A stretch of DNA of 13,431 nt, from positions 1 through 13,431 of IMG/VR virus record IMGVR_UViG_2617270968_000009. One strand, 5' to 3'. Under the pieces are notes generated by a model. It did not search any database, had not been told where the DNA came from, and worked only from the letters and a program-made list of their open reading frames with translations. Position numbers and translations under genes: made by a program. Every line of letters begins with the position of its first letter. Within the stretch, counting starts at the first letter, position 1. Origin of the DNA: a virus (Duplodnaviria > Heunggongvirae > Uroviricota > Caudoviricetes). Positions 1,285 to 13,431 of this stretch are shown in pieces.

Positions 1285-1309
1285 AGGTTGCTCCGGGCTA
1301 TGAAATAGA

Positions 1310-1420
1310 AAAATGAATCCGTTGAAGCCTGCTTTTTTATACTAAGTTGGCATTATAAAAAAGCATTGCTTATCAATTTGTTGCAACGAACAGGTCACTA
1401 TCAGTCAAAATAAAATCATT
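1310..1420. other. attL: attL (B-O-P'): lambda core GCTTTTTTATACTAA at 1331-1345 with host B arm on the left and phage P' arm on the right
   Basis: Core sequence seen directly; right flank gttggcattataaaaaagcattgcttatcaatttgttgcaacgaacaggtcactatcagtcaaaataaaatcatt matches the lambda P' arm, with an IHF-like site (tATCAAtttgTTG) and arm-type Int sites (aggtcactat, cagtcaaaat) adjacent to the int 3' end. Confidence 0.9.
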
Positions 1421-2489
1421 ATTTGATTTCAATTTTGTCCCACTCCCTGCCTCTGTCATCACGATACTGTGATGCCATGGTGTCCGACTTATGCCCGAGA
1501 AGATGTTGAGCAAACTTATCGCTTATCTGCTTCTCATAGAGTCTTGCAGACAAACTGCGCAACTCGTGAAAGGTAGGCGGATCCCCTTCGAAGGAAAGAC
1601 CTGATGCTTTTCGTGCGCGCATAAAATACCTTGATACTGTGCCGGATGAAAGCGGTTCGCGACGAGTAGATGCAATTATGGTTTCTCCGCCAAGAATCTC
1701 TTTGCATTTATCAAGTGTTTCCTTCATTGATATTCCGAGAGCATCAACATGCAATGCTGTTGGGATGGCAATTTTTACGCCTGTTTTGCTTTGCTCGACA
1801 TAAAGATATCCATCTACGATATCAGACCACTTCATTTCGCATAAATCACCAACTCGTTGCCCGGTAACAACAGCCAGTTCCATTGCAAGTCTGAGCCAAC
1901 ATGGTGATGATTCTGCTGCTAGATAAATTTTCAGGTATTCGTCAGCCGTAAGTCTTGATCTCCTTACCTCTGATTTTGCTGCGCGAGTGGCAGCGACAGG
2001 GTTTGTTGTTATATGGCCTTCAGCTATTGCCTCTCGGAATGCATCGCTCAGTGTTGATCTGATTAACTTGGCTGACGCCGCCTTGCCCTCGTCTATGTAT
2101 CCATTGAGCATTGCCGCAATTTCTTTTGTGGTGATGTCTTCAAGTGGAGCATCAGGCAGCCCCCTCCTTATTGCTTTAATTTTGCTCATGTAATTTATGA
2201 GTGTCTTCTGCTTGATTCCTCTGCTGGCCAGGATTTTTTCGTAGCGATCAAGCCATGAATGTAACGTAACGGAATTATCACTGTTGATTCTCGCTGTCAG
2301 AGGCTTGTGTTTGTGTCCTGAAAATAACTCAATGTTGGCCTGTATAGCTTCAGTGATTGCGATTCGCCTGTCTCTGCCTAATCCAAACTCTTTACCCGTC
2401 CTTGGGTCCCTGTAGCAGTAATATCCATTGTTTCTTATATAAAGGTTAGGGGGTAAATCCCGGCGCTCATGACTTCGCCTTCTTCCCAT
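1419..2489 (-). CDS. int: Integrase, tyrosine recombinase (lambda Int)
   Basis: 356-aa ORF, ATG at 2489; near-identical to remembered lambda Int (MGRRRSHERRDLPPNLYIRNNGYYCYRDPRTGKEF... C-terminal ...SQYRDDRGREWDKIEIK with catalytic Tyr); directly beside attL. Confidence 0.97.
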   Translation of the reverse strand: MGRRRSHERRDLPPNLYIRNNGYYCYRDPRTGKEFGLGRDRRIAITEAIQANIELFSGHKHKPLTARINSDNSVTLHSWLDRYEKILASRGIKQKTLINYMSKIKAIRRGLPDAPLEDITTKEIAAMLNGYIDEGKAASAKLIRSTLSDAFREAIAEGHITTNPVAATRAAKSEVRRSRLTADEYLKIYLAAESSPCWLRLAMELAVVTGQRVGDLCEMKWSDIVDGYLYVEQSKTGVKIAIPTALHVDALGISMKETLDKCKEILGGETIIASTRREPLSSGTVSRYFMRARKASGLSFEGDPPTFHELRSLSARLYEKQISDKFAQHLLGHKSDTMASQYRDDRGREWDKIEIK

Positions 2490-2685
2490 TTCTGATCCTC
2501 TTCAAAAGGCTACCTGTTACTGGTCGATTTAAGTCAACCTTTACCGCTGATTCGTGGAACAGATACTCTCTTCCATCCTTAACCGGAGGTGGGAATATCC
2601 TGCATTCCCGAACCCATCGACGAACTGTTTCAAGGCTTCTTGGACGTCGCTGGCGTGCGTTCCACTCCTGAAGTGTCAAGTACAT
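2467..2685 (-). CDS. xis: Excisionase (lambda Xis)
   Basis: 72-aa ORF MYLTLQEWNARQRRPRSLETVRRWVRECRIFPPPVKDGREYLFHESAVKVDLNRP..., overlapping the int start by 23 nt as in lambda. Confidence 0.95.
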   Translation of the reverse strand: MYLTLQEWNARQRRPRSLETVRRWVRECRIFPPPVKDGREYLFHESAVKVDLNRPVTGSLLKRIRNGKKAKS

Positions 2686-2712
2686 CGCAAAGTCTCCGCA
2701 ATTACACGCAAG

Positions 2713-2732
2713 AAAAAACCGCCATCAGGCGG
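2713..2732 (-). terminator. Intrinsic terminator-like hairpin (ccgccatcaggcgg on the plus strand, followed on the minus strand by a T6 run)
   Basis: GC stem 2719-2732 with U-tract 2713-2718 when read on the minus strand; overlaps the stop of the orf55-like ORF, upstream of xis. Confidence 0.5.
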
Positions 2733-2892
2733 CTTGGTGTTCTTTCAGTTCTTCAATTCGAATATTGGTTACGTCTGCATGCGCTATCTGCGCCCATATC
2801 ATCCAGTGGTTATAGCAGTCGTTGATGTCCTCCGCTTCGATAACCCTGTTGAATGGCTCTCCATTCCATTCACCTGTGACTCGGAAGTGCAT
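2725..2892 (-). CDS. Small hypothetical protein (55 aa) in the xis-ea8.5 interval, lambda orf55-like
   Basis: Hand translation from ATG at 2892: MHFRVTGEWNGEPFNRVIEAEDINDCYNHWMIWAQIAHADVTNIRIEELKEHQAA*; absent from the ORF track because it is under 60 aa; same position as the small ORF annotated between xis and ea8.5 in lambda. Confidence 0.5.
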   Translation of the reverse strand: MHFRVTGEWNGEPFNRVIEAEDINDCYNHWMIWAQIAHADVTNIRIEELKEHQAA

Positions 2893-2980
2893 TTATCATC
2901 TCCAAAAAACAAAACCCGCCGTAGCGAGTTCAGATAAAATAAATCCCCGCGAGTGCGAGGATTGTTATGTAATATTGGGT

Positions 2981-3262
2981 TTAATCATCTATATGTTTTG
3001 TACAGAGAGGGCAAGTATCGTTTCCACCGTACTCGTGATAATAATTTTGCACGGTATCAGTCATTTCTCGCACATTGCAGAATGGGGATTTGTCTTCATT
3101 AGACTTATAAACCTTCATGGAATATTTGTATGCCGACTCTATATCTATACCTTCATCTACATAAACACCTTCGTGATGTCTGCATGGAGACAAGACACCG
3201 GATCTGCACAACATTGATAACGCCCAATCTTTTTGCTCAGACTCTAACTCATTGATACTCAT
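2981..3262 (-). CDS. ea8.5: Ea8.5 protein (lambda early-left accessory gene, function unknown)
   Basis: 93-aa ORF, ATG at 3262, Cys/His-rich; length and position match lambda ea8.5. Confidence 0.85.
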   Translation of the reverse strand: MSINELESEQKDWALSMLCRSGVLSPCRHHEGVYVDEGIDIESAYKYSMKVYKSNEDKSPFCNVREMTDTVQNYYHEYGGNDTCPLCTKHIDD

Positions 3263-3464
3263 TTATAAACTCCTTGCAATGTATGTCGTTTCAGCTAAAC
3301 GGTATCAGCAATGTTTATGTAAAGAAACAGTAAGATAATACTCAACCCGATGTTTGAGTACGGTCATCATCTGACACTACAGACTCTGGCATCGCTGTGA
3401 AGACGACGCGAAATTCAGCATTTTCACAAGCGTTATCTTTTACAAACCCGTATTCCTGCTCATA

Positions 3465-4016
3465 TCACTCTCCTTTGATGCGAATGCCTGTTGCAATGCT
3501 GTTTATGATGCTGTCAGTGCATGGGGTAGAAAGCTGGGCATCTCCAGCAATTCTCATGACCTCAACATCTGCATATCGAATACCGAGGTGTATCAGACCG
3601 GCTATACCTGACTTAAGCCGAGCATTTTCCATAAACAGATCCTTTGCCCGCTGTTTTTCTGCCTCAAGCTCAACGCGCAACTTCCCTACCGTTAACGCAA
3701 TCTCCTCGTTCTCCTGGTCGCGGCGTTTGATGTATTGCTGGTTTCTTTCCAGCTCATCCAGCAGCGCCAAGACGGTAGCGGGATTGGCTGCGGCGATGAA
3801 TTCAGCATTGGCCTGCTGTTCCATTTGGAAATCTTCATCGAAACCGCTTTCTGGATGCGCTCCTTCAATTCTGCAAATAGGAATATATCCAGCAACTTCA
3901 CGATGAATTAGCGCATCATCACCATCAAATCGGCTCTCTCCATATTCGAGCGACCACTCACCACACGTTGCTTTTTCTGCCTTGGCCCGCAGTGCCTGAG
4001 AGTTAATTTCGCTCAC
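3465..4016 (-). CDS. ea22: Ea22-like protein (coiled-coil rich early-left accessory protein)
   Basis: 183-aa ORF with GTG start at 4016 (MSEINSQALRAKAEK...); position after ea8.5 and length (lambda Ea22 is 182 aa) match. Confidence 0.8.
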   Translation of the reverse strand: MSEINSQALRAKAEKATCGEWSLEYGESRFDGDDALIHREVAGYIPICRIEGAHPESGFDEDFQMEQQANAEFIAAANPATVLALLDELERNQQYIKRRDQENEEIALTVGKLRVELEAEKQRAKDLFMENARLKSGIAGLIHLGIRYADVEVMRIAGDAQLSTPCTDSIINSIATGIRIKGE

Positions 4017-4234
4017 TTCGAACCTCTCTGTTTACTGATAAGCTCCAGATCTTCCTGGCAACTTGCACAAGTCCGACAACCCTGAACGGCCAGGCGTCTT
4101 CGCTCATCTATGGGATCGCCACACTCACAACAATGAGTGGCAGATATAGCCTGGTGGTTCAGGCGGCGCATTTTTATTGCTGTATTGCGCTGTAATTCTT
4201 CGATTTCTGATGCTGAATCAATGATGTCTGCCAT
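4013..4234 (-). CDS. TraR/DksA-family C4 zinc-finger protein (lambda Orf73-like)
   Basis: 73-aa ORF with two CxxC pairs (CCECGDPIDERRRLAVQGCRTCASCQ) typical of the TraR/DksA C4 zinc finger; 4-nt overlap with the ea22 start. Confidence 0.75.
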   Translation of the reverse strand: MADIIDSASEIEELQRNTAIKMRRLNHQAISATHCCECGDPIDERRRLAVQGCRTCASCQEDLELISKQRGSK

Positions 4235-4283
4235 CTTTCATTAATCCCTGAATTGTTGGTTAATACGCTTGAGGGTGAATGCG

Positions 4284-4310
4284 AATAATAAAAAAGGAGC
4301 CTGTAGCTCC
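4284..4310 (-). terminator. Intrinsic terminator-like hairpin between the orf61-position ORF and the TraR-like ORF
   Basis: Plus strand ggagc-ctgta-gctcc (4296-4310) preceded by aataataaaaaa, so the minus strand reads hairpin then TTTTTTATTATT. Confidence 0.5.
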
Positions 4311-4332
4311 ATGATGATTTTGTTTTTCATGC

Positions 4333-4614
4333 TCACCGTTCCTTAAAGACGCCGTTTAACATGCCGATCGCCAGGCTTAAATGAGTCGGTGTGAATCCCA
4401 TCAGCGTTACCGTTTCGTGGTGCTTCTTCAGTACGCTACGGCAAATGTCATCGACGTTTTTATCCGGAAACTGCTGTCTGGCTTTTTTGATTTCAGAATT
4501 AGCCTGACGGGCAATGCTGCGAAGGGCGTTTTCCTGCTGAGGTGTCACTGAACAAGCCCCATGTCGGCAAGCATAAGCACACAGAATATGAAGCCCGCTG
4601 CCAGAAAAATGCAT
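4333..4614 (-). CDS. Hypothetical protein at the lambda orf61 position (start uncertain)
   Basis: 93-aa ORF from ATG at 4614. An in-frame ATG at 4644 overlaps the orf63 3' end by 20 nt (the lambda orf61/orf63 arrangement) but is followed by an in-frame TGA at 4615-4617. An internal GTG overlapping the stop of a 27-aa alternate-frame ORF is another possible start. Confidence 0.45.
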   Translation of the reverse strand: MHFSGSGLHILCAYACRHGACSVTPQQENALRSIARQANSEIKKARQQFPDKNVDDICRSVLKKHHETVTLMGFTPTHLSLAIGMLNGVFKER

Positions 4615-4624
4615 TCAGTGGTTG

Positions 4625-4816
4625 TCATACCTGGTCTCTCTCATCTGCTTCTGCTTTCGCCACCATCATTTCCAGCTTTTGTGAAAGGGATGCGGCTAAC
4701 GTATGAAATACTTCGTCTGTTTCTACTGGTATTGGCACAAACCTGACTCCAATTTGAGCGAGGCTATGTGCCATCTCGATACTCGTTCTTAACTCAACGG
4801 GAGATGCTTTGTGCAT
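4625..4816 (-). CDS. Orf63-like small protein (lambda early-left region)
   Basis: 63-aa ORF, ATG at 4816 preceded by GGGGAG Shine-Dalgarno on the minus strand; length and position match lambda orf63. Confidence 0.7.
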   Translation of the reverse strand: MHKASPVELRTSIEMAHSLAQIGVRFVPIPVETDEVFHTLAASLSQKLEMMVAKAEADERDQV

Positions 4817-4985
4817 ACAGCTCCCCGTTTATTATTTATCTCCTCAGCCAGCCGCTGTGCTTTCAGGGGATTTCGGATAACAGAAAGGCCGGGAAATACC
4901 CAGCCTCGCTTTGTAACGGAGTAGACGAAAGTGATCGCGCCTAACAGGCGCAACAGTAACCAGCATAAATCAGGCTGCGGCCAAA

Positions 4986-5162
4986 ATGGCGCGGACAGGA
5001 ATCTTAGTTATTGATGGTAAGGTCTGGCGAACGGTGTATTACCGGTTCGCTACCAGGGAAGAACGGGAAGGAAAGGTGAGCACGAATCTGATTTTCAAGG
5101 AGTGTCGCCAGAGTGCCGCGATGAAGCGGGTGTTGGCATTTTATCGCGGCAATTTTCAATAG
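4986..5162 (+). CDS. Possible small ORF (58 aa), function unknown
   Basis: Hand translation MARTGILVIDGKVWRTVYYRFATREEREGKVSTNLIFKECRQSAAMKRVLAFYRGNFQ*; no convincing Shine-Dalgarno; lies at the boundary between the lambda-like arm and the AT-rich insert. Confidence 0.3.
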   Translation: MARTGILVIDGKVWRTVYYRFATREEREGKVSTNLIFKECRQSAAMKRVLAFYRGNFQ

Positions 5163-5198
5163 ACTATGTACATAAAAATATCATTTTTTAATACATGT

Positions 5199-5390
5199 CT
5201 AATTATTGGACGAAATTGGTTTTTGCTTTGGTTTAGTTAGCCTAGCAATCAAGCCAGAGGCAATAATGATGATCCAAGCAATTTGATGCAATGCTACTCC
5301 AATATAAGAACCTTTATAGATAATAAAGGCATAGATCGCTAGAAACGAAATAAATATCCATAACGAAAGTTGATAAATTTTGGCGCGCAT
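5199..5390 (-). CDS. Small hydrophobic (predicted two-helix membrane) protein, about 63 aa
   Basis: Track ORF 5199-5405 begins at a TTG; the first ATG is at 5390 (MRAKIYQLSLWIFISFLAIYAFIIYKGSYIGVALHQIAWIIIIASGLIARLTKPKQKPISSNN). Two hydrophobic stretches, basic C-terminus, AT-rich codon usage, weak Shine-Dalgarno. Confidence 0.45.
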   Translation of the reverse strand: MRAKIYQLSLWIFISFLAIYAFIIYKGSYIGVALHQIAWIIIIASGLIARLTKPKQKPISSNN

Positions 5391-5646
5391 ATTTAATCCA
5401 ATCAATCAGAAAGACGAGTAATCATAGAGGTACTATCACCCGGGTAACTATTGCTATTATGAACGGATAGGATAGAGGCTTCAATAACATATGCATCAAG
5501 TATGATGGAATATGTAGATGAAAATGACTTGTGTCAAATTTGTGGAAATGAGTACCATGTTTCTCTGAAATTGATGTCGTTAATGGCTAGTGATAGTGAA
5601 CTTTTTTACTTTATAATTCCTTTGGTTATAACAATAAGGTAAATTT

Positions 5647-6207
5647 ATGAAGAAGATAATATTATTAGCCATGATTATTGGTTCTTTAACAGGTTGCGCT
5701 AGTGTGCCACCATTGAATTTTTCAACACCTAACGTGGGAGTTAGCCAGAAAAAAATAGATGCTGAAATTAAGTCATTAACGGTATCACTTGCTCGTCCAG
5801 ATGAGCAGAAAGGGGATATCACTGCTGGTATGGAGGCTATAACTCCAATTTGGCGTGAATCTTTGCAGGAAGCACTCGACCGAATGACTATTTTTCGTGA
5901 TAGTTCACCAAATACGGTTAGCTTAAATGTTAAAGTGTTGGCTCTTGACGTTCCTGCTTTTGGTGTTTCAATGACAACTAAAGCAATTGCAAGGTATGAA
6001 ATAATCAACCGTGCGAATGGTGATATTATATATACGCAGGATATTGAGTCTACCGGTACTGTTCCAGCCAGTTACGCATTCTACGGTATTGTTCGAGCAC
6101 GCGAATCTGTTAATCGCGCGGTGCAAAACAACATAACGCAGTTCTTGCAAGCATTAGAAAGTGTTGATCTTTCTCGTCCAATGTTTCCTGTTAGGGTAGC
6201 TAAATGA
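5647..6207 (+). CDS. Lipoprotein of unknown function (186 aa, signal peptide plus lipobox LTGC)
   Basis: ATG at 5647 with AAGG Shine-Dalgarno 7 nt upstream; N-terminus MKKIILLAMIIGSLTGC is a typical lipoprotein signal; residue after Cys is Ala (no inner-membrane retention Asp); stop overlaps the next start (ATGA at 6204-6207). Confidence 0.8.
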   Translation: MKKIILLAMIIGSLTGCASVPPLNFSTPNVGVSQKKIDAEIKSLTVSLARPDEQKGDITAGMEAITPIWRESLQEALDRMTIFRDSSPNTVSLNVKVLALDVPAFGVSMTTKAIARYEIINRANGDIIYTQDIESTGTVPASYAFYGIVRARESVNRAVQNNITQFLQALESVDLSRPMFPVRVAK

Positions 6208-6656
6208 AGCGATTATTCGTAATTGCTCCACTCTTAGTGTTGGTTGGATGCGCACAAAATATATCGCCAAATAGTTATTCTGTTGGCTCTGTGGGCATGG
6301 TTAATCGAACTATCGCTGGTACAGTTATTAGTGCCAGGGGGGTTGATATCAGTGGGACTTCCGCGTTAGGCGGGACTGCTGGGGCTGCCGTGGGGGCAAC
6401 CGCTGGTTCTGCGCTTGGTGGGGGAGTTCGTTCTAATATCGTTGGTGCCGTTGGTGGTGCGGTCATTGGTGGTATTGCCGGGGCAGCAATCGAATCTTCA
6501 GCAACAAAACAAACAGGCATGGAATATGTTGTCGAAACTGAGAATGGGAATTTAATGACCATTGTTCAAGGCAAAGATCCGTTATTTACTCAAGGAAGTA
6601 AGGTCCTTGTTTTATACGGAAACCCTTCTCGCATAATAACAGACCCGCGTCACTAA
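6204..6656 (+). CDS. Glycine-zipper outer-membrane lipoprotein, SlyB/Pcp-like (150 aa)
   Basis: Lipoprotein signal MKRLFVIAPLLVLVGC; central Gly/Ala-rich glycine-zipper segment (GGTAGAAVGATAGSALGGGV...GAVGGAVIGGIAGAAI) followed by a C-terminal beta-rich tail, the architecture of SlyB/Pcp-family lipoproteins; translationally coupled to the upstream lipoprotein. Confidence 0.8.
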   Translation: MKRLFVIAPLLVLVGCAQNISPNSYSVGSVGMVNRTIAGTVISARGVDISGTSALGGTAGAAVGATAGSALGGGVRSNIVGAVGGAVIGGIAGAAIESSATKQTGMEYVVETENGNLMTIVQGKDPLFTQGSKVLVLYGNPSRIITDPRH

Positions 6657-6748
6657 CATACCTTTTGATTTTGTAAAATCAATTCGTAATAATAAAGTCA
6701 TCGGAGCTTGAACAACTCCGGTGACTTCTGCGCTAAACGGGGACGTTT

Positions 6749-6850
6749 ATGCGCACATACAATCCAAACTCTCTTCTCCCTTCACAGATGCAGAAATGCA
6801 CCTGCGATTTTTTGTATCCTGAGTTTGACCTCTGCGGAGGTGAAGCGTGA
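6749..6850 (+). CDS. Small Cys-containing ORF (33 aa) translationally coupled to ninB/ybcN (possibly ylcH-like)
   Basis: Hand translation [33 protein letters not shown]; stop TGA 6848-6850 overlaps the GTG start of the next gene (GTGA); position matches the small gene upstream of ybcN in DLP12, but the sequence is not confirmed from memory. Confidence 0.45.
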
Positions 6851-7302
6851 ACCTCCCACAAGACGGCATCAAATTACATCGCGGCAACTTCACCGCTATC
6901 GGCCAGCAGATCCAGCCTTATCTGGAGGACGGAAAATGCTTTCGCATGGTGCTTAAACCGTGGCGCGAGAGACGCAGTCTTTCCCAGAATGCACTCAGCC
7001 ACATGTGGTACAGCGAAATCAGTGAATACCTCATCAGCAGGGGTAAAACGTTCGCCACTCCAGCTTGGGTAAAAGATGCTCTCAAACACACATATCTCGG
7101 TTATGAAACCAAAGACCTGGTTGATGTCGTAACCGGTGATATCACCACTATCCAGTCGTTACGCCATACCTCCGATCTTGATACCGGAGAGATGTATGTC
7201 TTCCTGTGTAATGTTGAAGCCTGGGCGATGAATATTGGCTGCCACCTGACTATTCCGCCGAGCTGCGAGTTCCAGCTGCTGCGCGATAAGCAGGAGGCGT
7301 AA
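6847..7302 (+). CDS. ybcN: NinB-family recombination protein (DLP12 YbcN-like, DNA base-flipping protein)
   Basis: 151-aa ORF with GTG start and GGAGGTG Shine-Dalgarno; sequence recognised as E. coli YbcN/NinB-like ([13 protein letters not shown] motif region). Confidence 0.85.
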
Positions 7303-7472
7303 TGGCTACACCGCTTATTCGTGTCATGAACGGGCACATTTACAGAGTACCAAATCGTCGTAAGCGTAAACCTGAGCTGAAGCCTTCCGAAATACCAACA
7401 CTGCTCGGATATACCGCCAGCCTGGTTGATAAAAAATGGTTGCGACTGGCAGCAAGGAGGAATCATGGCTGA
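7302..7472 (+). CDS. ninE: NinE-like small protein (56 aa)
   Basis: Hand translation [56 protein letters not shown]; start overlaps the ybcN stop (TAATG); conserved nin-region position. Confidence 0.7.
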   Translation: MATPLIRVMNGHIYRVPNRRKRKPELKPSEIPTLLGYTASLVDKKWLRLAARRNHG

Positions 7473-7755
7473 TTTGAGAAAAGCAGCGCGTGGTCGGGAA
7501 TGCCAGGTAAGAATCCCTGGCGTATGTAATGGCAACCCTGAAACGTCTGTACTGGCACATATCCGGCTGGCTGGATTGTGCGGCACCGGTATTAAACCGC
7601 CAGACCTTATTGCCACCATTGCCTGTTCTGCCTGTCACGCCGAAATCGACCGCCGCACGCATTTTGTCGATGCTGAGCACGCAAAAGAATGCGCGCTGGA
7701 AGGTATGGCGAGAACGCAGGTTATCTGGCTGAAAGAGGGGGTAATCAAGGCGTGA
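7465..7755 (+). CDS. ybcO: YbcO-like nin-region protein (Cys/His-rich, putative nuclease, 96 aa)
   Basis: ATG at 7465 with AGGAGG Shine-Dalgarno 5 nt upstream ([37 protein letters not shown]...); the track's longer 109-aa version starts upstream inside ninE. Confidence 0.85.
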
Positions 7756-8114
7756 ATACTTACCACATCACACTACCCTGGCCTCCGAGCAATAATCGCT
7801 ATTACCGCCATAATCGCGGGCGCACGCACATCAGCGCAGAGGGGCAGGCATACCGCGATAACGTCGCCCGAATCATTAAAAACGCAATGCTGGATATCGG
7901 CCTGGCTATGCCTGTGAAAATCCGCATTGAGTGCCACATGCCGGATCGCCGTCGCCGTGACCTGGATAATCTGCAAAAAGCCGCTTTTGACGCACTCACT
8001 AAAGCAGGTTTCTGGCTGGATGATGCTCAGGTCGTTGATTACCGCGTTGTGAAGATGCCTGTTACCAAAGGTGGGAGGCTGGAACTGACCATCACCGAAA
8101 TGGGGAATGAATGA
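7752..8114 (+). CDS. rusA: RusA Holliday-junction resolvase (120 aa)
   Basis: GTG start overlapping the ybcO stop (GTGA); protein [119 protein letters not shown] recognised as RusA. Confidence 0.9.
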
Positions 8115-8251
8115 TGTTTGAGTTTAATATGGCAGAACTTCTTCGCCACCGCTGGGGGCGTCTGCGCTTATATCGTTTCCCCGGTTCTGTTTTGACCGAT
8201 TACCGAATACTGAAGAATTACGCCAAAACCCTGACAGGAGCAGGAGTATGA
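8111..8251 (+). CDS. ylcG: YlcG-like small protein (46 aa)
   Basis: Hand translation [46 protein letters not shown]; start overlaps the rusA stop (ATGA); same position as ylcG in DLP12. Confidence 0.65.
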
Positions 8252-8336
8252 AGTCAGAGATAACAATCAACTAATACTGTTTTGTTGATTTTTGCTTGTA
8301 ATTGGCGTTCTGGTCTGATTTTTGTGGAGTAAGTTG

Positions 8337-8720
8337 ATGCGTGATATTCAGATGGTTCTTGAGCGTTGGGGATCGTGGGCGGCTAATAATCATGAAGATG
8401 TGACCTGGTCGTCCATTGCCGCCGGTTTTAAGGGATTAATTACTTCAAAAGTAAAATCTCGCCCGCAATGTTGTGACGATGACGCGATGATCATTTGCGG
8501 GTGCATGGCCCGTCTGAAAAAGAACAACAGCGATTTGCACGATTTATTAGTAGATTATTATGTAGTCGGTATGACATTCATGTCACTGGCAGGTAAGCAT
8601 TGCTGCTCTGATGGTTATATCGGGAAAAGGTTACAGAAGGCTGAGGGTATAATTGAAGGGATGTTAATGGCATTAGATATCCGGTTAGAGATGGATATCG
8701 TTGTTAATAACTCTAATTAA
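8337..8720 (+). CDS. quuD: Late-gene antiterminator Q (DLP12 QuuD-type, 127 aa)
   Basis: ATG at 8337 with GGAG 7 nt upstream; protein [26 protein letters not shown]... with Cys-rich segment ([17 protein letters not shown]); position immediately upstream of the lysis region. Confidence 0.8.
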
Positions 8721-8747
8721 TATGCCAGTTGTTTACTAAAAGTTATT

Positions 8748-8771
8748 AAAAATGGGGCGTTGAGACGCCCC
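8748..8771 (-). terminator. Intrinsic terminator for the minus-strand nmpC transcript
   Basis: Plus strand aaaaat-ggggcgt-tgag-acgcccc; on the minus strand this is a 7-bp GC stem followed by ATTTTT. Confidence 0.5.
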
Positions 8772-8859
8772 CAAAAATAAAGGGTAATATATAACAGAAG
8801 GTTTATATAGTTAGAAGCAAGGTTGTGCTTCTAAAGGAAGTGGCTTGAGGGAGCCACTT

Positions 8860-8900
8860 ATATGTTGGGGAGGCAACGCCTCCCGCAACATATCTTTTTC
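8860..8900 (+). terminator. Strong intrinsic terminator on the plus strand, downstream of Q (possible tR' or operon-end terminator)
   Basis: 15-bp interrupted stem atatgttg-gggaggc / gcctccc-(g)-caacatat (8860-8893) followed by CTTTTTC; ends 10 nt before the nmpC stop codon. Confidence 0.55.
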
Positions 8901-8909
8901 GTAATCAGA

Positions 8910-10007
8910 TTAGAACTGGTAAACCAGACCTACAGCAACGATGTCATCAGTGCTTACACCGAGTGCTTTAGTGAAGTCATTTTTGTCAAGCAGGTTGATT
9001 TTGTAATCAACGAAAGTAGACATATTTTTGTTGAAGTAATAGGTTGCACCTACATCAACATATTTGACTAAGTCCTGATCGCCCCATACTCCAAGATCCT
9101 TACCTTTAGATTGCAGGTAAGCAACGGACGGACGCAGACCGAAATCGAACTGATATTGTGCAACAGCTTCGAAGTTTTGAGCTTTATTAGCAACGAAGTG
9201 ATCAGCAAATACAGTCATATTCTGGGTTTCAGAATAGGTAGTGGCCAGGTAAATGTTGTTAGCGTCATATTTCAGACCTGCGGCCCAAACTTCTGCATTT
9301 TTACCGGAAGCAAATACTTCAGGAAGAACTTTCCCTGCATTAACTTGAGTGTCGGTACGATCAGATTTCGCATAAGTTGCACCGATACCGAATCCTTCGT
9401 ATTCATAGGTAGCAGAGAAACCGAAGCCATCACCGTTACCTTCAGTGTAGTTATCGAAATCGCTACGATCGTTTTTGCCTTGGTACTGAGCAGCAAAGTT
9501 CAGACCATCAACCAGACCAAAGAAGTCGTTGTTACGATAGGTTGCAACACCAGTGGTGCGACCAGTCATGAACACATCTGTTTGGGTCCAGGTATCGCCA
9601 CCGAATTCTGGCAGAACGTCAGTCCACGCACCGATGTCGTATGCTACACCGTAGTTACGGCCGTAATCGATGGAGCCGTAGTCACCGAATTTCAGGCCAG
9701 CGAAGGCAAGACGGGTTTTATCTTTGGAGGAACCTTGAGATTCAGCGCGGTTGCCTTTGAATTCATATTCCCACTGACCGAAACCAGTCAGTTGATCGTT
9801 GATTTGGGTTTCACCTTTGAAGCCAAGACGGGCATAAGTAGTATCACCATCATCTGCATCATTAGAGGAGAAGTAGTGCTTAGCATTAACTTTCCCGTAC
9901 AGATCCAGCTTGTTACTGTCTTTATTATAAATTTCAGCTGCCTGAGCAGACATCGCCATCAGTACTGATGCAGCTACAGCAGAAATTGCCACTGTTAATT
10001 TTTTCAT
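8910..10007 (-). CDS. nmpC: Outer-membrane general porin NmpC/OmpD-type (intact, 365 aa)
   Basis: Signal peptide [23 protein letters not shown] then AEIYNKD..., aromatic/Gly-rich beta-barrel repeats, C-terminal ...VGLVYQF; AAGGG Shine-Dalgarno upstream; uninterrupted (no IS element). Confidence 0.92.
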
Positions 10008-10376
10008 CGTGAGCCCTTTTTTTTGAACTATTATTAAAAAATGATGTCACTGCGCGATAAATATTCATCTAATCAATGTGATTATTTCAAGATGTAAGTT
10101 TTGGTTTCTCGTTTGATTTGTGAAGTAGATCTCTATTTTTATCTGAACTTTTTTCTATCGAATCCTATTCATAGCTCTTGGCTGAATAAAAATAAATCTA
10201 TTAGCCAATTTATATTAACGGCTGTTATTTATAAGCGCTCTATAATTTGAAGGTTCAATTTAAATCAGCTAAAATAACACTGGAAATTATTTGTTGGTTA
10301 TTTGTTGAGATTTGCTTATGTATTTGTAGTGGTGTTTTCAATACTCGGTAGCATTCTCGCAAATATCATTTAGTGG

Positions 10377-10405
10377 TTTACGTACGTAAAAAATTGGTTA
10401 TGCTG
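10377..10405 (+). promoter_or_regulatory. Candidate sigma70 promoter (TTTACG, 16-nt spacer, TATGCT), possible late promoter pR'
   Basis: Hexamers each match consensus at 4 of 6 positions; located about 30 nt upstream of a strong terminator and about 180 nt upstream of the holin gene, the geometry expected for pR'-tR'. Confidence 0.25.
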
Positions 10406-10434
10406 TTAAGAGTGGTTACTTCGTCACACAGCTT

Positions 10435-10467
10435 AAACCCGCCGTCGAGCGGGTTTTTCCATTTTTT
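10435..10467 (+). terminator. Intrinsic terminator upstream of the lysis cassette (candidate tR')
   Basis: Stem aaacccgc / gcgggttt with loop cgtcga (10435-10456) followed by TTTTTCCATTTTTT. Confidence 0.55.
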
Positions 10468-10579
10468 GAGTCTCGATATTAGCTGATAACCCAATACCTG
10501 AGTTATTCACTGACTCCGAGTCTGTTACGTTTCGTAGTATTCCCTCAATTTACACCCGCTTTGTCTGCGAGGTGGGGTT

Positions 10580-10795
10580 ATGAAATCCATGGATAAGTTA
10601 ACAACGGGTGTCGCCTATGGCACCTCAGCAGGTAGTGCCGGGTACTGGTTTTTACAGCTGCTAGATAAAGTCACGCCCTCACAGTGGGCGGCAATTGGAG
10701 TGCTGGGTAGCCTGGTATTTGGCCTGCTGACGTACCTGACAAACCTTTATTTCAAGATTAAAGAAGATAAGCGTAAGGCTGCGAGAGGTGAATAA
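10580..10795 (+). CDS. essD: Class II holin / pinholin, S21-type, with dual-start motif MKSM (71/68 aa)
   Basis: 71-aa [74 protein letters not shown]; two transmembrane segments; Met1-Lys2-Ser3-Met4 dual start; immediately upstream of the endolysin gene. Confidence 0.9.
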
Positions 10796-11292
10796 TGTCG
10801 CCATCATTACGCAAGGCTGTAGCAGCTGCTATTGGTGGTGGGGCTGTTGCCATAGCGTCTGTGCTCATCACTGGTCCGAGTGGTGACGATGGTCTGGAAG
10901 GTGTCAGCTACATACCATATAAAGATATCGTTGGCGTATGGACTGTATGTCACGGGCATACAGGAAAAGACATCATTCCCGGTAAAACGTATACCGAAGC
11001 AGAATGCAAAGCCCTCCTGAATAAAGACCTTGCCACTGTCGCCAGACAAATTAACCCGTACATCAAAGTCGATATACCGGAAACAACGCGCGGCGCTCTT
11101 TACTCGTTCGTCTACAACGTGGGTGCTGGCAATTTCAGAATATCGACGCTTCTTCGCAAAATAAACCAGGGTGATATCAAAGGCGCATGTGATCAGCTAC
11201 GTCGCTGGACATATGCTGGCGGTAAGCAATGGAAAGGTCTCATGACTCGTCGTGAGATTGAGCGTGAAATCTGTTTGTGGGGTAAGCAATGA
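10795..11292 (+). CDS. rrrD: SAR endolysin (signal-anchor-release lysozyme, R21-type, 165 aa)
   Basis: N-terminal weakly hydrophobic Gly/Ala-rich SAR segment ([20 protein letters not shown]) followed by a lysozyme domain; start overlaps the holin stop; recognised as DLP12 RrrD / phage 21 R-like. Confidence 0.9.
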
Positions 11293-11750
11293 ACAGAGTA
11301 ACCGCGATTATCTCCGCTCTGGTTATCTGCATCATCGTCTGCCTGTCATGGGCTGTTAATCATTACCGTGATAACGCCATTACCTACAAAGCCCAGCGCG
11401 ACAAAAATGCCAGAGAACTGAAGCTGGCGAACGCGGCAATTACTGACATGCAGATGCGCCAGCGTGATGTTGCTGCACTGGATGAAAAATACACGAAGGA
11501 GTTAGCTAATGCGAAAGCTGAAAATGATGCTCTGCGTGATGATGTTGCCGCTGGTCGTCGTCGGTTGCACATCAAAGCAGTCTGTCAGTCAGTGCGTGAA
11601 GCCACCACCGCCTCCGGCGTGGATAATGCAGCCTCCCCCCGACTGGCAGACACCGCTGAACGGGATTATTTCACCCTCAGAGAGAGGCTGATCACTATGC
11701 AAAAACAACTGGAAGGAACCCAGAAGTATATTAATGAGCAGTGCAGATAG
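11289..11750 (+). CDS. Rz: Rz inner-membrane spanin (i-spanin, 153 aa)
   Basis: [60 protein letters not shown]... near-identical to remembered lambda Rz; ATGA overlap with the endolysin stop. Confidence 0.92.
11509..11691 (+). CDS. Rz1: Rz1 outer-membrane lipoprotein spanin (o-spanin), embedded in the +1 frame of Rz
   Basis: 60-aa [27 protein letters not shown]... with lipobox VVGC and proline-rich mature region ([15 protein letters not shown]), wholly inside Rz. Confidence 0.88.
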
Positions 11751-11753
11751 AGC

Positions 11754-11771
11754 TGCCCATATCGATGGGCA
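11754..11771. terminator. Hairpin between convergent Rz and bor (tgcccat-atcg-atgggca), no U-tract on either strand
   Basis: 7-bp stem with 4-nt loop directly after the Rz stop; position fits a bidirectional transcript-end or stability element. Confidence 0.35.
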
Positions 11772-11781
11772 ACTCATGCAA

Positions 11782-12075
11782 TTATTGTGAGCAATACACA
11801 CGCGCTTCCAGCGGAGTATAAATGCCTAAAGTAATAAAACCGAGCAATCCATTTACGAATGTTTGCTGGGTTTCTGTTTTAACAACATTTTCTGCGCCGC
11901 CACAAATTTTGGCTGCATCAACAGTTTTCTCCTGTCCAATTCCCGAAACGAAGAAATGATGGGTGATGGTTTCCTTTGGTGTTACTGCTGTAGGTTTGTT
12001 TCCAACAGTAAACGTCTGTTGAGCACATCCTGTAATAAGCATTGCCAGAGCGGCAGAAAACAACATTTTTTTCAT
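11782..12075 (-). CDS. bor: Bor lipoprotein (serum-resistance moron, 97 aa)
   Basis: True start is the ATG at 12075 (MKKMLFSAALAMLITGC lipobox) with AGGA Shine-Dalgarno; the track ORF extends upstream to 12123; recognised as lambda Bor. Confidence 0.92.
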   Translation of the reverse strand: MKKMLFSAALAMLITGCAQQTFTVGNKPTAVTPKETITHHFFVSGIGQEKTVDAAKICGGAENVVKTETQQTFVNGLLGFITLGIYTPLEARVYCSQ

Positions 12076-12275
12076 CTTATTATCCTGCATTGTTAAAAAC
12101 GGCAGAATCCTATGTGACAACAATTAAACGATAGTTAAATGGATTGATGAAAATTAAAACTATATAGGTGTACGCTCAGACTATTGGAGGAAGTTGGGGA
12201 CACTCAGAATCCTGTGGAATGAAATAAACCGGTCTATCCGTCTATTACCCTTTTAGCTGCGCTGTATCGTCGCCG

Positions 12276-12340
12276 TATTCCCGCATTAACCATGACCGTA
12301 GCCCGACGGGGAATTCCTTCTGCGTGAGTGTGCGGGAATA
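12276..12340. repeat. Perfect 10-bp inverted repeat tattcccgca (12276-12285) / tgcgggaata (12331-12340) with 45-bp spacer
   Basis: Read directly from the sequence; lies in the non-coding interval between bor and the RHH-like gene; spacer contains ggggaattcc. Confidence 0.6.
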
Positions 12341-12437
12341 ATCAAAAACGATGCACACCGGGTTTTACTGTGCTGACAGACGCAGGGTTACCCTCATAGT
12401 CGCTTTTCCGGTGCGATGGTGGAAGAAACCGGGATGT

Positions 12438-12632
12438 TCATCCATCATCACTTTGGATTGATGTATATGCTCTCTTTTCTGACGTTAGTCTCCGACGGCA
12501 GGCTTCAATGACCCAGGCTGAGAAATTCCCGGACCCTTTTTGCTCAAGAGCGATGTTAATTTGTTCAATCATTTGGTTAGGAAAGCGGATGTTGCGGGTT
12601 GTTGTTCTGCGGGTTCTGTTCTTCGTTGACAT
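12438..12632 (-). CDS. ylcI: Small ribbon-helix-helix-like protein (64 aa; DLP12 YlcI / lambda right-end ORF homolog)
   Basis: ATG at 12632; MSTKNRTRRTTTRNIRFPNQMIEQINIALEQKGSGNFSAWVIEACRRRL... shows basic N-tail, short beta strand, then two helices (Arc/MetJ-like RHH pattern); last gene before cos. Confidence 0.7.
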   Translation of the reverse strand: MSTKNRTRRTTTRNIRFPNQMIEQINIALEQKGSGNFSAWVIEACRRRLTSEKRAYTSIQSDDG

Positions 12633-12779
12633 GAGGTTGCCCCGTATTCAGTGTCGCTGATTTGTATTGTCTGAAGTTGTTTTTACGTTAAGTTGATGCA
12701 GATCAATTAATACGATACCTGCGTCATAATTGATTATTTGACGTGGTTTGATGGCCTCCACGCACGTTGTGATATGTAG

Positions 12780-13020
12780 ATGATAATCATTATCACTTTA
12801 CGGGTCCTTTCCGGTGATCCGACAGGTTACGGGGCGGCGACCTCGCGGGTTTTCGCTATTTATGAAAATTTTCCGGTTTAAGGTGTTTCCGTTCTTCTTC
12901 GTCGTAACTTAATGTTTTTATTTAAAATACCCCCTGAAAAGAAAGGAAACGACAGGTGCTGAAAGCGGGCTTTTTGGCCTTTGTCGTTTCCTTTCTCTGT
13001 TTTTGTCCGTGGAATGAACA
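12780..13020. other. cos: cos site: cosQ / cosN / cosB; 12-nt cohesive-end sequence GGGCGGCGACCT at 12832-12843
   Basis: Sequence ...cgggtcctttccggtgatccgacaggttacg | gggcggcgacctcgcgggttttcgctatttatgaaaattttccggtttaagg... matches the lambda right-end/left-end junction; Nu1 begins 177 nt downstream. Confidence 0.93.
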
Positions 13021-13431
13021 ATGGAAGTCAACAAAAAGCAGCTGGCTGACATTTTCGGTGCGAGTATCCGTACCATTCAGAACTGGCAGGAACAGGGAAT
13101 GCCCGTTCTGCGAGGCGGTGGCAAGGGTAATGAGGTGCTTTATGATTCTGCCGCCGTCATAAAATGGTATGCCGAAAGGGATGCTGAAATTGAGAACGAA
13201 AAGCTGCGCCGGGAAGTTGAAGAACTGCGGCAGGCCAGCGAGACAGATCTCCAGCCAGGGACTATTGAGTACGAACGCCATCGACTTACGCGTGCGCAGG
13301 CCGACGCACAGGAGCTGAAAAATGCCAGAGACTCCGCTGAAGTGGTGGAAACCGCATTCTGTACTTTCGTGCTGTCGCGGATCGCAGGTGAAATTGCCAG
13401 TATTCTCGACGGGATCCCCCTGTCGGTGCAG
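13021..13431 (+). CDS. nu1: Terminase small subunit Nu1 (N-terminal 137 aa; truncated by window end)
   Basis: MEVNKKQLADIFGASIRTIQNWQEQGMPVLRGGGKGNEVLYDSAAVIKWYAERDAEIENEKLRREVEELRQ... near-identical to remembered lambda Nu1; no stop codon before the window end. Confidence 0.95.
   Translation, partial: MEVNKKQLADIFGASIRTIQNWQEQGMPVLRGGGKGNEVLYDSAAVIKWYAERDAEIENEKLRREVEELRQASETDLQPGTIEYERHRLTRAQADAQELKNARDSAEVVETAFCTFVLSRIAGEIASILDGIPLSVQ

Follow-up and report, generated by a model that had tools for sequence, protein, structure and literature searches.

A minus-strand porin cassette between the Q antiterminator gene and the predicted late promoter of a DLP12/PA-2-type lambdoid prophage

The late genes of the prophage described here raise the question of where their transcription begins. 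In the window, by which we mean the whole 13,431-nucleotide stretch analysed (positions 1 to 13,431 of IMG/VR record IMGVR_UViG_2617270968_000009), the antiterminator gene quuD and the holin gene essD are both on the plus strand and are separated by 1,859 nt (8721-10579) that contain a porin gene on the minus strand. A first reading, made from the sequence alone, had put this separation at 1.86 kb, which agrees with the distance measured from the quuD stop to the essD start, and had posed two alternatives: either late transcription starts just after Q and crosses the porin gene antisense, or it starts from a promoter within 10008-10579 that is uncoupled from the Q-proximal site. The features on which our answer is based are listed in Table 1.

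Table 1. Coordinates of features in the late-control region (positions are those of the window; strand left empty where none applies)
Feature	Position	Strand	Description
quuD	8337-8720	+	Q-type late antiterminator, 127 aa; ORF 8322-8720, real ATG at 8337
Inserted cargo (moron) cassette	~8697-10375		Between Q core and pR'; left edge 8696/8697 from alignments of Q relatives
Porin-transcript intrinsic terminator	8744-8771	-	GGGGCGT-CTCA-ACGCCCC then AUUUUUAAUA
Two tandem stable hairpins	8811-8834, 8838-8859		Porin 3' UTR / Q 3' trailer; missed in the sequence-only reading
Strong intrinsic terminator	8860-8901	+	15-bp stem with one bulge 8860-8893, then CUUUUUCG 8894-8901
Lc/NmpC general porin	8910-10007	-	365 aa, signal peptide, C-terminal ...VYQF
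Predicted late promoter pR'	10377-10404	+	-35 TTTACG 10377-10382, 16-nt spacer, -10 TATGCT 10399-10404; start A10411
Conserved initially transcribed block, presumed Q-loading/pause region ('qut')	10407-10434	+	TAAGAGTGGTTACTTCGTCACACAGCTT
Promoter-proximal intrinsic terminator (tR'-like)	10435-10470	+	AAACCCGC-CGTCGA-GCGGGTTT, then TTCCATTTTTT; hairpin 10435-10456 plus T runs
Late lysis cassette essD-rrrD-rzpD	10580-11750	+	Domain matches and annotation of identical records
essD	10580-10795	+	Holin, P21 holin S family match; pinholin, dual starts 10580 and 10589
rrrD	10795-11292	+	Phage_lysozyme match
rzpD	11289-11750	+	Rz match

The late-control module and its porin gene

The late-control region of the window is that of a lambdoid prophage of the DLP12/PA-2 type, the reading frames of this module are all intact, and the assignments of Q, porin and holin made from the sequence alone are borne out by Pfam and family matches. 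The quuD product belongs to Pfam family Phage_antitermQ (PF06530, E=9e-53) and shares 77% amino acid identity with Q of the Shiga-toxin phage 933W; the family of both is labelled Q21/Q933W by Yin et al. The porin, of the OmpC/OmpF/PhoE family, matches Pfam Porin_1 (PF00267) over its full length (1-337 of 337, E=1e-156), the NCBIfam OmpC subfamily (526 bits, with a cutoff of 484) and the OmpC/OmpK36 structures (E=1e-135). Small open reading frames in both spacers are short and mostly lack ATG starts, and we regard none of them as credible; among them is the 'ORF1' given in the PA-2 record, at 8862-9071, which lies antisense to part of the porin gene. An Rfam scan of the whole window returned nothing at E<=1.

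This module is already known from PA-2 lc (1986), from DLP12 nmpC and from the viable phage 434B. The order of Q, minus-strand porin and S-R-Rz is the same in the PA-2 lc locus (Blasband et al. 1986; GenBank J02580) and in DLP12 (qsr'), the cryptic K-12 prophage that carries nmpC, and the Q-porin spacer of the window is 98.9% identical to that of the PA-2 lc/DLP12 nmpC locus. Differences are small: PA-2 and most of the others have an extra 16-17 nt after window position 10534, and in the hairpin at 10435-10456 the 3' arm has T in place of G in PA-2 and in some of the others. The prophage of the window adjoins ybhC and is not at the DLP12 site; we take ybhC to flank the lambda attachment site and DLP12 to lie at argU.

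The porin gene is a single uninterrupted open reading frame of 365 codons, and its product is identical to the Lc porin of PA-2 at 363 of 365 residues with no gaps; because the identity is gapless there is neither a frameshift nor an IS5 in the gene. The N-terminus, up to |AE, is the annotated 23-residue signal peptide of PA-2, and the C-terminus is ...GLVYQF. In K-12 an IS5 follows codon 346, and homology with K-12 breaks at the corresponding window position 8976, across which the window is continuous, as is PA-2. The sequence-only reading was thus correct in regarding the porin as intact here, the frameshift that it had named as a refutation being absent, and in recalling the K-12 copy as disrupted by IS5. 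An intact nmpC is not unusual and is a common state; among 5,426 complete genomes of E. coli, approximately 2,195 (~40%) carry an uninterrupted copy.

The porin gene has transcription signals of its own. In the identical K-12 sequence there is a minus-strand start at window position 10052/10053 (331 reads), giving a 5' UTR of 45 nt, and the upstream region is AT-rich, as had been noted, with 28-30% GC over 10000-10400 compared with ~50% in the lysis genes. Expression from this promoter in a lysogen would be a lysogenic-conversion function. At the other end of the transcript is an intrinsic terminator, which the sequence-only reading placed at 8748-8771 and whose stem we find at 8771-8754, followed by ATTTTTAATA; it folds with -13.9 kcal/mol (z = -3.9), and across seven diverse loci the stem is kept, with variation confined to the loop.

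A strong plus-strand terminator had also been described close to the porin stop, at 8860-8900, and we confirm it at 8860-8901, with a folding energy of -21.3 kcal/mol (z = -6.0) that none of 200 shuffled sequences reached. A simple hairpin scan misses it because the stem is bulged. It is kept in the seven loci, in one case with a stem variant that still forms 15 pairs, and when read on the minus strand the hairpin has no U tract. This terminator most likely ends the Q/early-right transcript and keeps antisense transcription out of the porin gene; read-through from Q and the early genes that would otherwise enter the porin gene antisense would stop here. Between the two terminators are the tandem hairpins of Table 1, and the minus-strand fold of 8800-8912 has a z of -8.5, with none of 200 shuffles as good.

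Position of the late promoter

The Q-pR' block of 933W aligns with the window at 77% nucleotide identity in two collinear pieces, one at 8335-8669 (the body of Q) and the other at 10376-10458 (E=5.7e-12 when compared with the window, and 6e-7 in a search of 2.3 Gb of phage DNA). The second piece covers pR', qut and the first terminator as annotated in 933W and VT1-Sakai, and the predicted late promoter is therefore the one at 10377-10404. The pR' homologue thus begins 1,656 nt past the Q stop (8720 to 10377) and not immediately after Q. The 10435-10470 terminator is homologous to the first one annotated after pR' in 933W, with the stem kept and the loop varying, and the terminated RNA from pR' is predicted to be ~50-60 nt long, with its end near 10461-10470. 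The sequence-only reading noticed neither this terminator nor the pR' homologue that directly precedes it.

The conservation of this block is considerable. In the -10 hexamer the A at position 2 and the T at position 6 are kept in all six relatives compared, the promoter spacer contains an invariant CG(T/C)AAAAA, and the sequence TAAGAGTGGTTAC (10407-10419) does not vary even where the Q proteins are just 42-48% identical. The conserved block occurs once, on the plus strand and downstream of Q, in 235 of 251 loci, and the pR' block is invariant in seven diverse porin loci. It is also found 3' of Q in phages that have no porin gene, namely 933W, 1720a-02 and 36 loci of IMG/VR in which the gap is 0-40 nt.

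Evidence on the start site comes from two sources. The PR' of Stx phages has been mapped by dRNA-seq and Term-seq, with a PR'-to-tR' distance of 258 nt (PMC7547250), and transferring this start to the window by means of the 258-nt distance leads to A10411. In public Cappable-seq data for K-12, whose sequence is identical to the window at the pR' block, there is a plus-strand start at 576452, which is window position 10411 and position 577229 of NC_000913.3, the same base as predicted; by our estimate from the reported total, the fraction of strand positions with a call in this set is ~0.002. In the comparison with DLP12 that the sequence-only reading had suggested, the K-12 porin-holin spacer is collinear with that of the window and nearly identical to it, with a single mismatch over 10300-10600. 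The Term-seq supplements of Adams 2021 have no entry for essD, nmpC or quuD.

There are nonetheless observations that tell against a start at pR'. At 10411 the Cappable-seq score is 1.7, a weak signal that is barely above the lowest scores listed in the set, and a far stronger plus-strand start lies in the same spacer at 576081, window position 10040, with a score of 90. An older set of K-12 transcription start sites gives only one start for essD, at 10468 with 7 reads. The predicted core promoter matches the consensus at only 8 of 12 positions, and there is no clear sigma-70 pause element (a -10-like TAnnnT) in the early transcribed region of the window, which has TACTTC where 933W has TACATT.

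The essD promoter of DLP12 has moreover been placed elsewhere, so that QuuD might act upstream in the same spacer, with 10377-10470 being merely a terminator that is read through. Reportedly (Rueggeberg et al. 2015), the essD promoter is RpoE-type and Q-responsive, with both RpoE and the -35 region affecting Q-dependent expression. The numbering of a reporter fragment as '-121 to +650', taken with its primers, implies a +1 near window position 10053-10056 (PMC7918800), and the sigma-70 start at 10040, the strongest plus-strand Cappable-seq start of the spacer, follows a good -10 hexamer, TATTAT, at 10029-10034. All of the published reporter fragments contain 10377-10470, however, and cannot therefore tell the two promoters apart. 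The upstream part of the spacer belongs to the porin cassette and is missing from phages with the same type of Q and no porin, so it is not the conserved Q target, whereas no non-coding block other than 10376-10458 accompanies this Q family. In addition, a paused complex close to the promoter, beside the Q-binding element, is the only place at which Q proteins load (Yin et al.). We therefore consider a Q-dependent start in the upstream spacer to be unlikely.

A start directly after Q, within 8721-8860, would put pR' where it canonically lies, as in lambda, 21, 82 and 933W (Yin et al.), and 8860-8901, lying ~140-180 nt past the Q stop and thus near the length of the lambda 6S RNA, would then be tR', with Q-modified polymerase crossing 1.1 kb of the porin gene antisense. 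The plus strand of 8721-8860 has no promoter-like hexamer pair, however, and K-12 Cappable-seq has no plus-strand starts between one inside quuD and those in IS5. Because neither a promoter-like site nor a plus-strand K-12 start is found in 8721-8909, the 8860-8901 hairpin does not terminate transcripts from a late promoter beside Q. Nor does 8721-8909 resemble any Q-linked region of porin-less phages; it is present in 36 phage records, all with the porin, and the Q relatives have already diverged from 8697 onward. Such an arrangement is thus highly improbable.

Equally improbable in our opinion is that the module is a decayed relic with no working Q switch, its conservation reflecting recent common descent. 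The host prophage is clearly defective, with no immunity or replication region and with structural genes that are truncated or fused, and its close relatives are 93-100% identical, so that conservation among these proves little. The module itself retains its reading frames, however, the pR' core is kept across the much more divergent Q proteins described above, and plaque-forming phages (434B, PA-2, PhiR and the ev phages) carry the same module. Phage 434B forms plaques with the DLP12 module despite the IS5 in its nmpC, and its authors describe the swapped segment as consisting of Q, the late promoter and the lysis genes.

We conclude that the porin cassette probably separates quuD from its cognate late promoter, on the opposite strand, and that late transcription starts at pR'. 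We infer that the QuuD response resides at the 10377-10404 promoter, along with the sites of Q binding and polymerase pausing. Sigma-70 RNA polymerase would initiate at pR' and, without Q, would halt ~50-60 nt further on; QuuD acting in trans would load at the conserved promoter-proximal block, and the Q-loaded polymerase would continue past the terminator to transcribe the lysis and late genes. Because the late promoter is downstream of the cassette, antisense crossing of the porin gene is unnecessary, and late transcripts would never traverse it. Of the two original alternatives, which posed the question fairly, it is thus the promoter within 10008-10579 that is favoured, by the 933W block at 10376-10458 and the K-12 start at 10411, and the antisense traversal that is not. 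It would mislead to describe that promoter as uncoupled from a Q-proximal site, since none exists here; the insertion has displaced the cognate site by 1.69 kb.

The Q-pR'-qut-tR' cassette of 933W and VT1-Sakai, the source of the StxS small RNA, provides the closest parallel, with a Q of the same family, a homologous promoter, start region and first hairpin terminator, and a shared logic of a constitutive promoter with early termination unless Q is present (PMC7547250). In 933W, however, the 3' end of Q and pR' overlap, with the cargo (tRNAs and stx) downstream of pR', on the plus strand and in the late operon, whereas in the window the cargo is upstream of pR' and on the minus strand. The 933W transcript also extends 258 nt to a second terminator; its 3' part is StxS, to which nothing in the window is homologous. 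Q21 of phage 21 (6P18/6P19, 6JNX) is in the same Pfam family and presumably shares the mechanism, loading at a sigma-dependent promoter-proximal pause and narrowing the RNA exit channel. The match of QuuD to the solved structures (6P18/6JNX) is distant (E=2e-6 over 80 residues), too distant for the Q21 binding element to be transferred to the window, and we rejected a Q-binding element taken over in this way.

The junction between Q and pR' as a site for cargo genes

Placed between Q and pR', the porin cassette is not part of the late operon, and it has the properties of an inserted moron. Its flanks are adjacent in relatives, with Q abutting pR' in VT1-Sakai as well as in the porin-less phages listed above, it has its own promoter and terminator (the minus-strand start at 10052/10053 and the stem at 8754-8771), and its base composition over 10000-10400 differs from that of the lysis genes. 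The two pieces that align with 933W are separated by 88 nt in 933W and by ~1.7 kb in the window. At the left edge, the conserved core of QuuD stops at ...RLEMD (8696), which is where alignments to porin-less Q relatives also end, and the final seven codons are part of the inserted segment. At the right edge, no significant match to a remnant of the 933W Q C-terminus was found upstream of pR' (10280-10400). The spacer at 10008-10375, like the one next to Q, is confined to 36 phage records, each of which has the porin as well.

The porin is not the only gene to occupy this position. A first scan of IMG/VR with the Q alignment recovered only copies that are 98-99% identical and is therefore uninformative as to diversity, which comes instead from two scans with distant Q proteins. 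In these relatives the Q/pR' junction holds at least 39 types of cargo, all on the minus strand. Many are defence-like, including PDC-M53, the KAP NTPase PDC-S20, PDC-S42, the NACHT protein PDC-S60, an OLD-like ATPase and a PD-Lambda-5-like protein, and 27 of the 39 cargo representatives have a terminator-like hairpin just past Q, most cassettes thus lying between such a hairpin and the pR'-tR' pair. It is quite possible, and we propose it tentatively, that the junction of Q and the late promoter is a dedicated antisense cargo hotspot of Q21/Q933W-type lambdoid phages, with the porin being one of at least 39 interchangeable cassettes. We found no description of such a hotspot in the literature searched, which leaves a prior report possible.

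The arrangement resembles the morons of HK97-type phages and the hotspots of P2 and P4 (Rousset et al. 2022) in having an autonomous gene, complete with promoter and terminator, between genes that are adjacent in relatives, and in that one junction accepts many alternative cargoes, several of which match defence-system models. It differs from these in being in lambdoid phages, in its location at the Q/pR' junction, and in the strictly reversed orientation of the cargo (39 of 39).

The window itself is a common and already sequenced lysogenic-conversion module in which an intact porin is normal, and as such it matters little. If the late promoter is where we place it, the published RpoE-type essD promoter of DLP12 would be part of the porin cassette and not the Q target; the DLP12 'essD promoter' fragments are numbered from a start ~355 nt upstream of the 933W-type pR', and Q control may have been misassigned. 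If the junction is a hotspot, its design would let a lysogen express the cargo outside of the late operon, and the cargo could possibly be silenced by antiterminated early read-through after prophage induction. The junction is thus a candidate place to look for prophage-borne defence or conversion genes.

An intact porin gene between quuD and the lysis genes

The genes of the region are ordered ybcN-ninE-ybcO-rusA-ylcG-quuD, the porin gene (minus strand), essD-rrrD-rzpD, and bor/iss (minus strand). The sequence-only reading placed an intact minus-strand porin gene, with an AT-rich upstream region and flanking terminators, between the antiterminator gene quuD and the holin gene essD, and this is borne out by the ORFs and by matches to PF06530 and Porin_1: the intergenic gap is 1,859 nt, the upstream region has 28–30% GC, and both terminators are real. 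The porin matches the whole Porin_1 model and aligns without gaps to the Lc protein of phage PA-2, from which 2 of its 365 residues differ, and is therefore intact; the alignment with K-12 breaks at window 8976, the IS5 insertion point. In K-12 the porin transcript starts at the equivalent of window 10052/10053 (minus strand; 331 reads), giving a leader of 45 nt. QuuD shares 77% identity with the 933W Q protein; their group has been named the Q21/Q933W family (Yin et al.).

Features of the region from quuD to essD (window coordinates)
Feature	Position	Strand	Description and basis
quuD	8337-8720	+	127 aa; PF06530, E=9e-53
Minus-strand terminator	stem 8771-8754, then AUUUUUAAUA	-	Terminator scan and folding
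Plus-strand terminator	8860-8893, then CUUUUUCG	+	15-bp stem with one bulge; -21.3 kcal/mol, z = -6.0
Porin ORF	8910-10007	-	365 aa; Porin_1
pR' -35, TTTACG	10377-10382	+	933W alignment
pR' -10, TATGCT	10399-10404	+	933W alignment
Conserved transcribed block, TAAGAGTGGTTACTTCGTCACAC	downstream of pR' -10	+	933W alignment
Terminator, followed by T runs	10435-10456	+	Terminator scan and 933W alignment
essD	start 10580	+

Several smaller features of these genes were also observed. Between the two terminators (window 8811-8859) are two further hairpins of very high stability, which would fall in the porin 3′ UTR; the minus-strand fold of 8800-8912 has z = -8.5. Across seven loci the N-terminal half of the porin and both spacers are near-invariant, and the C-terminal half (∼8940-9540) is mosaic and highly variable, with 6- and 9-nt indels, a pattern consistent with recombination or with diversifying selection acting on surface loops. 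Within quuD there is a plus-strand promoter-like site (TTTGCA-16-TATTAT, 8534-8561) and a K-12 Cappable-seq start at about window 8564 (plus strand; score 9.3), from which an RNA of ∼330 nt would end at the 8860-8901 terminator. The essD gene begins with the dual-start motif ATG-AAA-TCC-ATG (Met1 and Met4; 10580-10590), an arrangement shared with the S71/S68 pinholin/antiholin pair of phage 21, and a dual start is annotated in the curated record of the plaque-forming phage 434B.

A prophage of E. coli BS74R-D matches the region at 100% identity, and many others do so at 99%. The BS74R-D prophage adjoins ybhC and is clearly defective, lacking an immunity or replication block and having truncated or fused structural genes. 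It keeps int, xis, a few early genes, a partial ren and the nin region (window 1-8300, locus L002), and downstream of these the terminase gene is fused, the capsid gene is truncated, and tail-fibre fragments precede IS1; in so heavily deleted a prophage no obvious driver remains for quuD expression.

Probable position of the late promoter

When the porin-holin spacer was searched against the phage collection, window 10376-10458 matched more than 300 porin-less records, mostly of Shiga-toxin phages, in which a "pR' promoter, qut, terminator" is annotated at the end of the Q gene. Direct comparison with the 933W Q-pR' block yields two collinear pieces, the Q body (8335-8669) and the segment with pR', qut and the first hairpin (10376-10458), which are separated by 88 nt in 933W and by ∼1.7 kb in the window. 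Six phages with Q proteins down to 42–48% identity share an invariant transcribed block; their -10 hexamers differ, except that A at position 2 and T at position 6 are retained in all. No obvious -10-like pause hexamer is seen in the window, which has TACTTC where 933W has TACATT.

Two differences among relatives were noted near this block. At window 10452, in the 3′ arm of the terminator hairpin, PA-2, ST865, F11 and phage Turner have GCTGG versus GCGGG, a mid-stem mismatch, so baseline read-through may differ among lineages. PA-2 and each of the six other loci in the alignment have, in the leader that separates the terminator from essD, a 16–17 nt segment (CTGCTTTTTTGCGATA) that is absent at 10534/10535 from the window and from K-12.

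In Stx phages both PR' and the 3′ terminus of the RNA made from it have been mapped, 258 nt apart (Sy et al., PMC7547250), and the start carried over by alignment is window A10411. The sequence-only reading had suggested a comparison with DLP12; in K-12 the DLP12 spacer runs collinear with the window and matches it exactly across the pR' block, the sole mismatch within 10300-10600 being at 10360. Window coordinates equal U00096.2 coordinates minus 566041, and the MG1655 Cappable-seq list has a plus-strand start at 576452, exactly window 10411; the signal is weak (score 1.7), but the exact match is unlikely to arise by chance since only ∼0.2% of strand positions are called, as estimated from ∼16,500 reported start sites. 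Across the equivalent of 8721-8909 the same list contains no plus-strand start, and a promoter scan of that stretch found no site. The stretch occurs in 36 phage-collection records, all 36 with the porin, and in porin-less Q relatives the alignment ends at 8696, directly past the conserved ...RLEMD. The split 933W alignment, the 10411 start, the empty 8721-8909 stretch and the break at 8696 together place the porin cassette at about 8697-10375; as judged from sequence, it is situated between Q and pR', outside the late operon. Late transcription had been proposed either to start after Q, crossing the porin gene antisense, or to start from a promoter within 10008-10579; the interpretation holds in part, the second proposal being supported and the first not, and the reading had overlooked pR' itself and its terminator.

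This position conflicts with the published DLP12 "SRRz promoter", cloned as -121 to +650 with citation of Rueggeberg 2015 (Pasqua et al., PMC7918800). The primers map to window 9935 (forward) and ∼10703 (reverse), which with the numbering puts the cited +1 near 10053-10056, close to RpoE-like elements GAACT (10025-10029) and TCACT (10047-10051) and to a strong sigma-70-type plus-strand Cappable-seq start at 10040 (score 90, in identical K-12 sequence) preceded by TATTAT at 10029-10034. That Q acts near 10040-10056 rather than at pR', the main alternative, is nonetheless improbable, because the sequence there is part of the porin cassette and is missing from porin-less phages with the same type of Q; all the published fragments, moreover, also contain 10377-10470. 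The 10040 start lies only 12–13 nt from the porin start at 10052/10053, so the plus and minus transcripts overlap at their 5′ ends. Its transcript would traverse the AT-rich region and pR', ending at the 10435-10470 terminator after ∼400 nt, and could possibly interfere with the porin promoter or pR'.

With pR' as the preferred late promoter, polymerase would initiate there and, when QuuD is not loaded, terminate ∼50–60 nt on. QuuD would load in trans at the promoter-proximal block, and Q-modified polymerase would continue into essD-rrrD-rzpD and beyond; we infer both the response to Q at pR' and the exact Q-binding and pause elements. The porin gene would be transcribed from its own promoter to an end at 8754-8771, with the 8860-8901 plus-strand terminator closing the Q transcript and shielding the porin gene against antisense read-through.

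The Q-pR' junction in related loci

We also collected 251 loci with a Q of the QuuD family from reference phages, E. coli prophages and IMG/VR; these are the top hits of three queries, a biased sampling, and the numbers that follow are therefore counts and not frequencies. The pR' core (13 nt, at most 2 mismatches) is found on the plus strand downstream of Q in 235 of the 251, those lacking it being mostly truncated. The core lies 0–40 nt past the Q stop in 36 loci and 500–3,800 nt past it in the remainder; the longer gaps form 39 sequence clusters, every one with its main ORFs in minus-strand orientation. A terminator-like hairpin lies within ∼45 nt after Q in 27 of the 39 cluster representatives, and a terminator follows pR' in most.

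At least 39 unrelated cargo cassettes occupy the junction equivalent to window 8697-10375 (at L214, L212, L163, L152, L173 and L227, among other loci). Matches to candidate or known defence proteins in PADLOC include PDC-M53 A and B in Shigella phage SfII (L016/L097), PDC-S20 (a KAP NTPase), a PDC-M68A-like HNH nuclease, PDC-S42, an OLD/AAA_21 ATPase, PDC-S60 (a 1,060-aa NACHT protein) and a PD-Lambda-5_A-like protein. NYN, NA37 and DUF6731 domains are also present, and many cargoes have no match in the domain or PADLOC comparisons. The literature searched yielded no account of a cargo hotspot at this junction, which is weak evidence of novelty.

The Q-porin junction is uninterrupted in ∼2,195 of 5,426 complete E. 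coli genomes, the whole module is present in 36 sequenced phages, and the 1986 record of PA-2 has the same architecture as the window. PA-2 lysogens were reportedly shown by Schnaitman's group to produce the Lc porin and lose OmpC, the PA-2 receptor, and Prilipov et al. in 1998 are said to have found nmpC intact yet quiescent in E. coli B. Given this frequency, the 36 phages and the PA-2 record, the porin element is already known and common, and an ordinary finding; the hotspot pattern and the promoter discrepancy are of moderate side interest.
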